Below, in pieces: positions 9,851 through 10,720 of a DNA stretch of 27,426 nt. Numbering within the stretch: position 1 is the first letter of the stretch; each line of letters begins with the position of its first letter. The notes beneath the pieces are model-generated. The model did not search any database. It was not told the origin of the DNA and saw only the letters and a list, made by a program, of their open reading frames with translations. The DNA is from a virus (lineage: Duplodnaviria > Heunggongvirae > Uroviricota > Caudoviricetes), in IMG/VR virus record IMGVR_UViG_2660238683_000003, positions 1 to 27,426 of that record; one strand, 5' to 3'. The position numbers were made by a program, and so were the translations under genes.

Positions 9851-10720
9851 TTATTGTTTATTGGTTGTATGGGAATGAGCACCAATGGTGATATTCCTTC
9901 CGTGGCTGTGTGCGCCAATGGTAACGTTACCTACGGGTTTTACCGGATTAATCTGGTGTATATGTGCTCCCGGGCGAGAGCGATTATTAGTCAGCACGTC
10001 ATCAACCTGATGTTCAGGGTTAATACATACCTGCCCTGACCGTAAGCAATACGTACGGTAATCGCCACATCCAATATATTTAATATCAGCATAACGACAA
10101 CCAGATTTACCGGGGCAGTATGCACATGTGTTAAATACCGCCCACTGGCGGGAATATGCATATTCCCAGTTAATTGATTCTGTTTTTTTATTAAAATTAT
10201 CCCATGCCAGCTTCATCTGCCGGGTAACACTTTCAAACGGCACCTGACCACATCCGGCCCCCATTGCAGGTAATACCACCGTTTTTATTTTCCTGTCTGT
10301 CGTTGCATTTTTATTGTGCTGAAAGATGGCAAGCAGAGCGGCCCACGTGGCGTTATATACAGCGTCTGTTCCGTCAATGGTCAGCGGAACGCGCATTGTT
10401 GGCGCATGTACCAGCCAGGGATGGTTGTTATCCCCCGTTTCAATAACAAATGCAGTGCCTACAGGCTGCTCACCAAGATATTCACGAAGAATATGATTCT
10501 GAACACGTGTCTGTAACTGAGTACCAAAGAATGCAGTAATGGCAGCGTCAACGCCGCCATCCATTAGCCCGAAACTGTTTGCTGCACTGACCATGCAGTC
10601 AAATTCTCTGATTGTTTCAAATGGTTGACCGACAATATTCACATTATCTGCATTTGCAAATACCCGCTTAAATGCCTCAGCCATTTCAGGTACTGGTGCT
10701 GAAAGAATTAAATTAATCAT
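9851..10720 (-). CDS. Macro-domain protein (ADP-ribose-binding/hydrolase fold) with Cys-rich and His-repeat C-terminal tail, 289 aa
   Basis: Macro signatures in order: [18 protein letters not shown] (cf. NAAN..GGGV..AI), [20 protein letters not shown] (cf. FPAISTGIYGYP). C-terminal tail has about 7 Cys and IGAHSH repeats like the tail-fibre C-terminus. ATGA overlap with the S stop. Confidence 0.6.

Follow-up and report, generated by a model that had tools for sequence, protein, structure and literature searches.

Between the tail-fibre gene S and the tail-fibre assembly gene U of a P1-like phage-plasmid, IMG/VR record IMGVR_UViG_2660238683_000003, lies an open reading frame (ORF) that encodes a genuine macro domain followed by a C-terminal module resembling part of a tail fibre. 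The stretch of DNA analysed, here called the window, comprises 27,426 nucleotides (nt) and is 97% identical to P1 across 83% of its length. Our most likely reading, to which we assign a probability of roughly 0.45 on the strength of sequence comparisons and predicted structure, is that the product is a late-expressed hydrolase of adenosine diphosphate ribose (ADP-ribose, ADPr) derivatives, probably serving counter-defence and bearing a fibre-like, probably metal-binding tail. The ORF and its parts are the following.

9851..10720, minus strand: whole macro-domain ORF, 289 amino acids (aa) plus stop by translation of the window; matched by Pfam Macro (PF01661, 66.5 bits) and over its full length by phrog_2613 (E 8e-138)
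10136..10720, minus strand: macro core, aa 1-195, recognised by hidden Markov model (HMM), PDB profile and predicted fold
10001..10135, minus strand: Cys-rich block, aa 196-240, defined by the homologue alignment; a possible metal-binding mini-domain
9854..10000, minus strand: GAHxH tail, aa 241-289; the codons of its three GAHxH units begin at 9970, 9916 and 9883
10717..10720, minus strand: 4-nt ATGA, where the macro ATG (10720-10718) overlaps the TGA that ends S (10719-10717); translational coupling

The assignment of residues 1-195 to the macro fold is supported by several methods. The PF01661 score lies well above the cut-off of 22 bits (E 2.6e-18), and the match aligns aa 44-169 with profile positions 1-118 of 118. 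When a profile made from the window core and 29 diverse relatives was searched against the PDB, the best match was yeast YMR087W (1njr, 1txz and 1ty8; E 1.3e-14, profile positions 2-176), followed by Thermus TTHA0132 (E 2e-10) and, much more weakly, by MacroD/YmdB-type enzymes and DarG (5m3i, E 1e-5). AlphaFold, supplied with a diverse alignment, modelled aa 1-194 with a predicted local distance difference test score (pLDDT) of 97.4 and a predicted template modelling (TM) score of 0.93. In a Foldseek search of the PDB with this model, 1njr again came first (TM 0.73, root-mean-square deviation 2.8 Å over 198 columns), and all 50 of the 50 best matches were macro domains or designs built on one. 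A first-pass annotation, made from the DNA letters alone, had proposed an N-terminal macro domain. The HMM, profile and fold comparisons bear it out, and the macro-signature strings that it quoted are all present in the order given.

The ADP-ribose-binding and catalytic motif of macrodomains consists of Nx6GG[VLI]D together with a glycine-rich phosphate loop. We found the first element as N48-SFGLMD-G55-G56-V57-D58 and the second loop as G154-A-G-C-G158. Across 19 homologues, aligned over a span of 62-94% identity, N48, G51-D58, G154-G156 and G158 were invariant, and F50 and C157 nearly so. The macro domain looks catalytically intact.

YMR087W is the closest solved relative of the macro core, although membership in the YMR087W/Poa1p group is unproven. 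The alignment of the two spans the whole core, including an N-terminal beta-alpha-beta element that minimal macro domains lack, and they have in common the motifs NS[FY]G..GG[VF]D, H.PT and PG.G.G..VP. They differ in several respects: identity is only ~21%, the Pfam Macro_2 model (PF14519) scores the window ORF at 23 bits, below its 27-bit cut-off, and the yeast protein is without a Cys-rich or HxH tail. YMR087W is, moreover, a cellular ADP-ribose-1''-monophosphatase tied to a by-product of transfer RNA splicing and not the product of a phage late gene. All NCBIfam equivalogs scored far below their cut-offs for the macro ORF.

A phmmer search of 1.84 billion cluster representatives returned 2351 related clusters, most of them stand-alone proteins of ~200 aa, and it is to this large subfamily that the macro protein belongs. 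Some of the related clusters are multidomain proteins of eukaryotic appearance with WD40-macro or macro-rhodanese-phosphatase fusions. Five eukaryotic-looking proteins (P0129, P0140, P0234, P0126 and P0127), either multidomain or flanked by low-complexity sequence, and with WD40-macro and macro-rhodanese-dual-specificity-phosphatase arrangements among them, are 36-51% identical to the phage core, more than is usually seen between a phage protein and a eukaryotic one.

Stand-alone phage macro proteins (phrog_14717; phiRSL1 ORF054, Noxifer gp265 and Mae-JY35) fall in the same subfamily at 30-40% identity and differ in their length of ~180-215 aa and in having no C-terminal module. They are presumed to be hydrolases of ADPr derivatives acting in virus-host conflict (PMC9503650, PMC7824862). 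The copies in phiRSL1, P106B and Noxifer (our loci L005, L006 and L007) stand among hypothetical, non-structural or early-type genes with no fibre cassette, and the second gene downstream of the Mae-JY35 copy encodes a putative peptidase-S74 structural protein. Macro genes labelled 'tail protein' in jumbo and rhizobial phages were considered as independent evidence for a role in the tail and rejected on account of the non-tail contexts of the phiRSL1, P106B and Noxifer copies; the labels 'tail protein' and 'tail assembly-like protein' on these three are probably annotation transferred from the enterobacterial fibre-slot family.

The genes that flank the macro ORF define the slot in which it stands.

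10717..12951, minus strand: tail-fibre gene S, 744 aa from MNDVTV..., with Phage_fiber_2 and Collar domains; phrog_454
10720..11331, minus strand: gp37-type tip of S (collar, HxH needle, small head, end NYIVRLA), matching 2XGF
9242..9820, minus strand: U/Tfa tail-fibre assembly gene, 192 aa; PF02413 (E 5e-31), phrog_105; WP_029397813.1 in NZ_CP046005

The probable start of U is the ATG at 9820 (MTFRMS...), which is preceded by GAGGTG; the ORF finder had listed a GTG at 9826. On the coding strand the macro start reads ATGA, corresponding to TCAT at 10717-10720 of the plus strand, and these letters, with the translation, confirm the coupling of the 289-aa ORF to S that the first-pass annotation had described. 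Its placement of the ORF where P1 runs its fibre gene into U was likewise correct: in reference P1 the gap from S to U is 3 nt, with no gene between, and cin and the invertible C segment come next. The window is without cin and the C segment and holds one S-macro-U set only, with a glycosyltransferase gene and an acetyltransferase gene completing the neighbourhood. The order S-macro-U-glycosyltransferase-acetyltransferase recurs in at least 13 P1-like plasmids of Escherichia coli, E. fergusonii and E. albertii. The earlier statement that the P1 fibre module has no such gene thus stands for reference P1 and fails for these plasmids, which come from PLSDB, where the gene is present in 43 plasmids overall.

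Nor is the gene new. It is already catalogued, as PHROG 2613 of 'unknown function', is annotated as Macro in Gifsy-1, and belongs with the accessory enzymes of phages that contain macro domains. Of 5426 complete E. coli genomes, 128 contain it, with 108 copies on chromosomes and 22 on plasmids, and a collection of 5.8 billion proteins yielded 2249 relatives at E <1e-5, named either 'macro domain-containing protein' or 'phage tail protein'. The family is common in prophages of E. coli and Salmonella, including those of ST131 and O157:H7 strains and Gifsy-1. The arrangement of fibre gene, 4-nt overlap, macro gene and Tfa was observed in the P2-like phages Chuche (94% identity) and SEN4/5 (71% identity), in the lambdoid Gifsy-1 (68% identity; annotated 'contains pfam01661, Macro') and in a lambdoid ST131 prophage. 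We found no publication on the fibre-slot location, the Cys block, the needle-like tail or the function of the family.

Loci in IMG/VR follow the same pattern. At every locus with an upstream fibre gene, the fibre ORF ended 3 nt past the macro start, and a Tfa homologue lay downstream of the macro gene in all loci with a long enough flank. We also scanned IMG/VR for the junction itself, that is, for ...Y-I-V-R-L-A-stop overlapping an ATG. Among the 115 junctions found, the downstream gene was the macro gene in 81, Tfa directly in 31 and a fragment in 3; no other gene occupied the slot at any of them. Complete macro ORFs at the IMG/VR loci were mostly 242-300 aa long, three were tail-less forms of 203 aa, and five were disrupted. 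Neither the tail nor the macro gene is therefore indispensable. Because fibres of the same type often couple directly to Tfa, the macro gene is optional cargo of a mobile 'gp37-type tip plus Tfa' cassette, and this cassette moves by recombination between temperate phages of Enterobacteriaceae with P1-like, P2-like and lambdoid backbones. Of the tail-less relatives, the closest one (64% identity) lies elsewhere, between ParB_N and methyltransferase genes and upstream of a terminase gene.

Several degenerate or unusual copies were encountered. Remnants truncated at the 5' end, consisting of the Cys block and tail and starting at the internal Met169, are widespread in Salmonella (proteins P0270-P0291), and two of these fragment sequences, P0281 and P0289, each occur on >100 contigs. 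In SEN34 (L091 3501-3789) a remnant sits beside an O-acetyltransferase gene and an integrase gene, away from the fibre genes. A protein of 463 aa (P0024) combines StbA/ParM-type domains (PF06406, PF17989 and PF21523) with a macro part at 84% identity and is either a genuine fusion or an artefact of assembly or gene calling.

The gene appears to be expressed together with the fibre. Promoter-like sites numbered 2 against 5.2 expected and terminator-like sites 2 against 2.2 expected, with none flanking the macro gene. The last codons of the fibre gene (VRLA; GTG AGG/AGA CTT GCA) supply a GAGG/GAGA Shine-Dalgarno-like element for the macro start. With no promoter or terminator of its own and a start overlapping the S stop, the macro gene is made late, co-expressed with S and U, and is not a classic moron; a moron model with its own promoter and terminator was rejected on the same grounds. 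A programmed frameshift that would fuse S to the macro protein was also considered and dropped, no slippery heptamer being found at the junction.

The Nei-Gojobori method, applied to 38 unique genes, gave ratios of non-synonymous to synonymous substitution rates (dN/dS) of 0.12 in the core, 0.27-0.35 in the Cys block and 0.44-0.50 in the tail. Each part is translated and under purifying selection, which is strong in the core.

Six cysteines (C199, C202, C208, C218, C225 and C232) and three GAHxH units lie in the last 94 aa, as expected from the first-pass annotation, which had described a Cys-rich end closing in repeats that mirror those at the fibre tip. Across the 19 aligned homologues, C202, C225 and C232 never vary, C208 hardly does, and H237-Q238 is conserved. 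The consensus of the block is T-x-A-Y-C-x5-C-x2-A-x3-Y-I-G-x-G-x3-T-x-C-x3-G-x2-C-x4-H-Q, and among homologues it is followed by 1-5 GxHxH units. In the six-frame translation of the window, GxHxH occurs 12 times against ~2.5 expected from composition, and 8 of the 12 units lie either in the S tip (5) or in the macro tail (3). The C-terminal module had no Pfam match and, in profile searches, no PDB match even at E 10. Its profile found 24 matches only among the 5.8 billion proteins. That the module might be carried by other cargo proteins was examined and rejected: the matches inspected (P0265 and nine others) are 5'-truncated fragments of the same family, to which the module, Cys block included, is confined in that collection. 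The full-length AlphaFold model, computed as a monomer from a shallow alignment, had a pLDDT of 60, and its C-terminus, at pLDDT <50, is uninformative.

The variable part of S, which supplies the point of comparison for the tail, is a T4 gp37-type tip and not the Mu-like Sv of reference P1. A phmmer search of the PDB matched it to the T4 gp37 tip (2XGF) at E 2.8e-78, which marks it as a close homologue. In the short stretch that lies between the ascending HxH strand and the descending one, the window and Chuche have different sequences, as one would expect of a receptor-contacting head. Bartual and colleagues reportedly found in 2010 that the needle of the gp37 tip is trimeric, with iron ions coordinated by its HxH motifs. 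Each metal ion in that needle is coordinated by six histidines from three chains.

The macro tail resembles the HxH strand of this needle. A profile of the tail aligned with a profile of the descending needle strand of the fibre in hhalign at a probability of 95.8% (E 7e-9, 38 columns), in a region that is repetitive, and the fibre PHROGs 295 and 2097 matched the tail weakly (E ~0.01). Salmonella forms have both the 9-residue HxH spacing and the post-needle N.E..VKN segment of the fibre. In the window tail, the HxH spacing is 18 and 11 residues, versus 9 in the fibre, and the E. coli forms in general are irregularly spaced. The macro protein further differs from T4 gp37 and Tfa in being without Collar, Phage_fiber and Caudo_TAP matches, in having 1-5 HxH units only and in not ending in NYIVRLA. 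A comparison of the coding DNA of tail and needle by blastn (word size 7) gave chance-level matches only. Recent recombination between the tail and the fibre needle, which the first-pass annotation had offered as one origin of the gene, was accordingly rejected; the relationship is either ancient or convergent.

One slot locus (L087 2068-2970, IMG/VR contig 2643221431_000006) encodes a 300-aa macro protein with another C-terminus, CGC...CDCGCGWG...CRCGRHNHYIYTGAHTHS..., which is still more Cys/His-rich. This suggests either replacement or rapid divergence of its C-terminal module, with HxH units kept.

In the reading that we favour, the macro core would hydrolyse a 1'' substituent of ADP-ribose; its closest characterised relative acts at that position. 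Its substrate might be a soluble immune signal derived from ADPr, a toxic metabolite (ADPr-1''-phosphate, for example) or an ADP-ribosyl adduct. The enzyme would thereby blunt host defences based on nicotinamide adenine dinucleotide (NAD+) or ADP-ribose that are set off by the appearance of late structural proteins. Its His/Cys-rich C-terminus, if the gp37 needle is a guide, most likely binds metal and oligomerises the enzyme, and the tail could use the Tfa chaperone of the fibre. Iyer et al. (2022, PMC9503650) argue that soluble ADPr derivatives are the main target of phage Macro domains, whose genes sometimes lie among those for morphogenesis. T4 AdfM, which counters DarTG2, is a proven case of counter-defence by a phage macrodomain (bioRxiv 10.1101/2025.11.20.689424), and a DarG2-like protein of a chimallivirus is a phage macrodomain antidote (PMC13309987).

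Several observations weigh against this reading. The second motif of MacroD enzymes has the consensus G[VIA][YF]G, from which the GAGCG loop departs, and the Macro_2 score stays below its threshold. Three slot loci carry the tail-less 203-aa forms, prophages of Salmonella and E. coli often have the gene in truncated or disrupted form, and the GxHxH repeat composition may inflate the hhalign score between tail and needle. Late expression would be awkwardly timed for counter-defence, except against a defence that is itself triggered late or if the virion brings the enzyme along. The literature gives no substrate, activity or phenotype for any member of the family.

Among the alternatives, the one that survives best, although we regard it as unlikely, is that the enzyme is borne by the fibre itself: its needle-like tail would co-assemble with or dock on the gp37-type tip, perhaps via Tfa, making it a virion component that acts at the cell surface or is carried into the next infection. 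In three phage lineages the gene is strictly adjacent to the fibre gene and translationally coupled to it, which is consistent with this, as are the likeness of the tail to the needle, extended in the Salmonella forms to the post-needle segment, and the restriction of the C-terminal module to macro genes of the slot. Packaging of phage Macro proteins into virions has been proposed in general (Iyer et al. 2022, PMC9503650). However, tail fibres do not enter the cell, and no surface receptor is known to be an ADP-ribose conjugate. Mantel and partial Mantel tests on 56 loci point the same way. Tail distance tracked macro-core distance (r 0.93), and no co-variation of tail and needle was left once core distance was controlled (partial r -0.03), on which ground co-evolution of tail and fibre was rejected; the small partial r of 0.19-0.25 between tail and Tfa is put down to their adjacency. 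The irregular HxH spacing of the window tail and the occupation of the same slot by tail-less forms also argue against a fibre-borne enzyme, and no fibre-macro fusion was found among the best 120 and 150 matches.

A more specific version, in which the gp37-needle-like tail, folded by Tfa, would hold the macro enzyme together as a trimer and anchor it on the virion, either at the fibre or at the baseplate, we rate as less likely still. If true, this would be the first virion-carried ADP-ribose hydrolase encoded in a tail-fibre cassette, pre-positioned against ADPr-based immunity in the next host. Still more speculative is the idea that the macro enzyme acts on an ADP-sugar related to the lipopolysaccharide (LPS) receptor, such as ADP-heptose.

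It is improbable that the protein is a DarG-like antidote that strips ADP-ribose from DarT-modified DNA. Phage macrodomains with such a role are documented in T4 AdfM and the chimallivirus DarG2-like protein (bioRxiv 10.1101/2025.11.20.689424; PMC13309987), the window protein has the macro fold in common with DarG, TARG1 and AdfM, and DarG structures do appear among the Foldseek matches (5m3i, TM 0.59; 5m3e, TM 0.55). The PADLOC DarG model, however, gave only 13.4 bits (E 0.0098) over 38 residues, the PDB profile search ranked YMR087W and TTHA0132 far above DarG, and the full N-terminal beta-alpha-beta extension is common to YMR087W and not to DarG. The core belongs to another macro subgroup, and late expression would be poorly timed for protecting replicating DNA. 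Membership in DarG was rejected on the PADLOC score and the absence of a DarT partner among the neighbouring genes. The counter-defence against DarT-type toxins suggested by the first-pass annotation consequently found no specific support, the nearest solved relative being an ADP-ribose-1''-phosphatase and not DarG or TARG1.

Less probable again is an extra fibre chaperone or structural accessory that would fold or stabilise the HxH needle, by templating or metal delivery, with the macro fold as a mere scaffold. The macro gene does stand in the position of T4 gene 38, or of lambda Tfa, directly after a fibre gene, between a gp37-type tip and the Tfa chaperone, and its product has a His/Cys-rich, probably metal-binding C-terminus. 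Such a role is made unlikely by the frequent absence of the macro gene next to tips of the same type: 31 of the 115 junctions lead from the fibre directly to Tfa, and P1 assembles this tip type without a macro gene. To our knowledge, T4 and lambda do so as well. The ORF has no similarity to Caudo_TAP (PF02413), and its most conserved part is the ADP-ribose-binding motif, within the core of lowest dN/dS, which argues for catalysis or ligand binding. Finally, a functionless hitch-hiker, inserted once at the 3' end of a fibre gene and spread passively with the most recombinogenic cassette, would explain the optional presence of the gene, its frequent truncation and disruption and the fast evolution of the tail (mean distance 0.55), but is very unlikely given a core dN/dS of 0.12, a tail ratio that is also <1, and intact ORFs maintained over 35% protein divergence on three phage backbones.

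Macro domains recur as weapons where viruses and hosts contend over NAD+ and ADP-ribose, and the target is known for only a few of those in phages. The present family travels with a cassette that determines host range and bears a unique tail resembling a fibre, a combination that suggests that receptor-binding modules and counter-defence cargo are linked. Its substrate, if identified, could reveal an ADPr-based defence that these temperate phages meet late in infection. If the tail is a chaperone-dependent, metal-bound device for trimerisation or docking, it would represent a new way of attaching cargo to a phage particle and a possible handle for fibre engineering. Even on an ordinary reading, the annotation 'phage tail protein' on hundreds of these proteins needs correcting.

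Other genes near the slot deserve mention. Adjoining U in the window are a hexapeptide acetyltransferase gene (7503-8054, plus strand) and a glycosyltransferase gene (8041-9189, plus strand; annotated from 8047), which together occupy the place of lydC, cin and the invertible C segment of P1. The glycosyltransferase scores 658 bits with the NCBIfam model 'lipopolysaccharide N-acetylglucosaminyltransferase', above its cut-off of 618, and also matches Pfam GT4-conflict. Because the LPS core is the receptor of P1-type fibres, the two genes look like a pair for lysogenic conversion or superinfection exclusion. Between the holin gene and the acetyltransferase gene lies a small ORF (7149-7478, plus strand; annotated as 7296-7478 in NZ_CP046005) with a sub-threshold match to HTH_19 (E 0.006). 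In a lambdoid prophage of the E. coli ST131 chromosome NZ_CP103557 (L009 6609-8508), genes with a reverse-transcriptase domain and a SLATT domain, a defence-like pair, lie directly downstream of the fibre, macro and Tfa genes.

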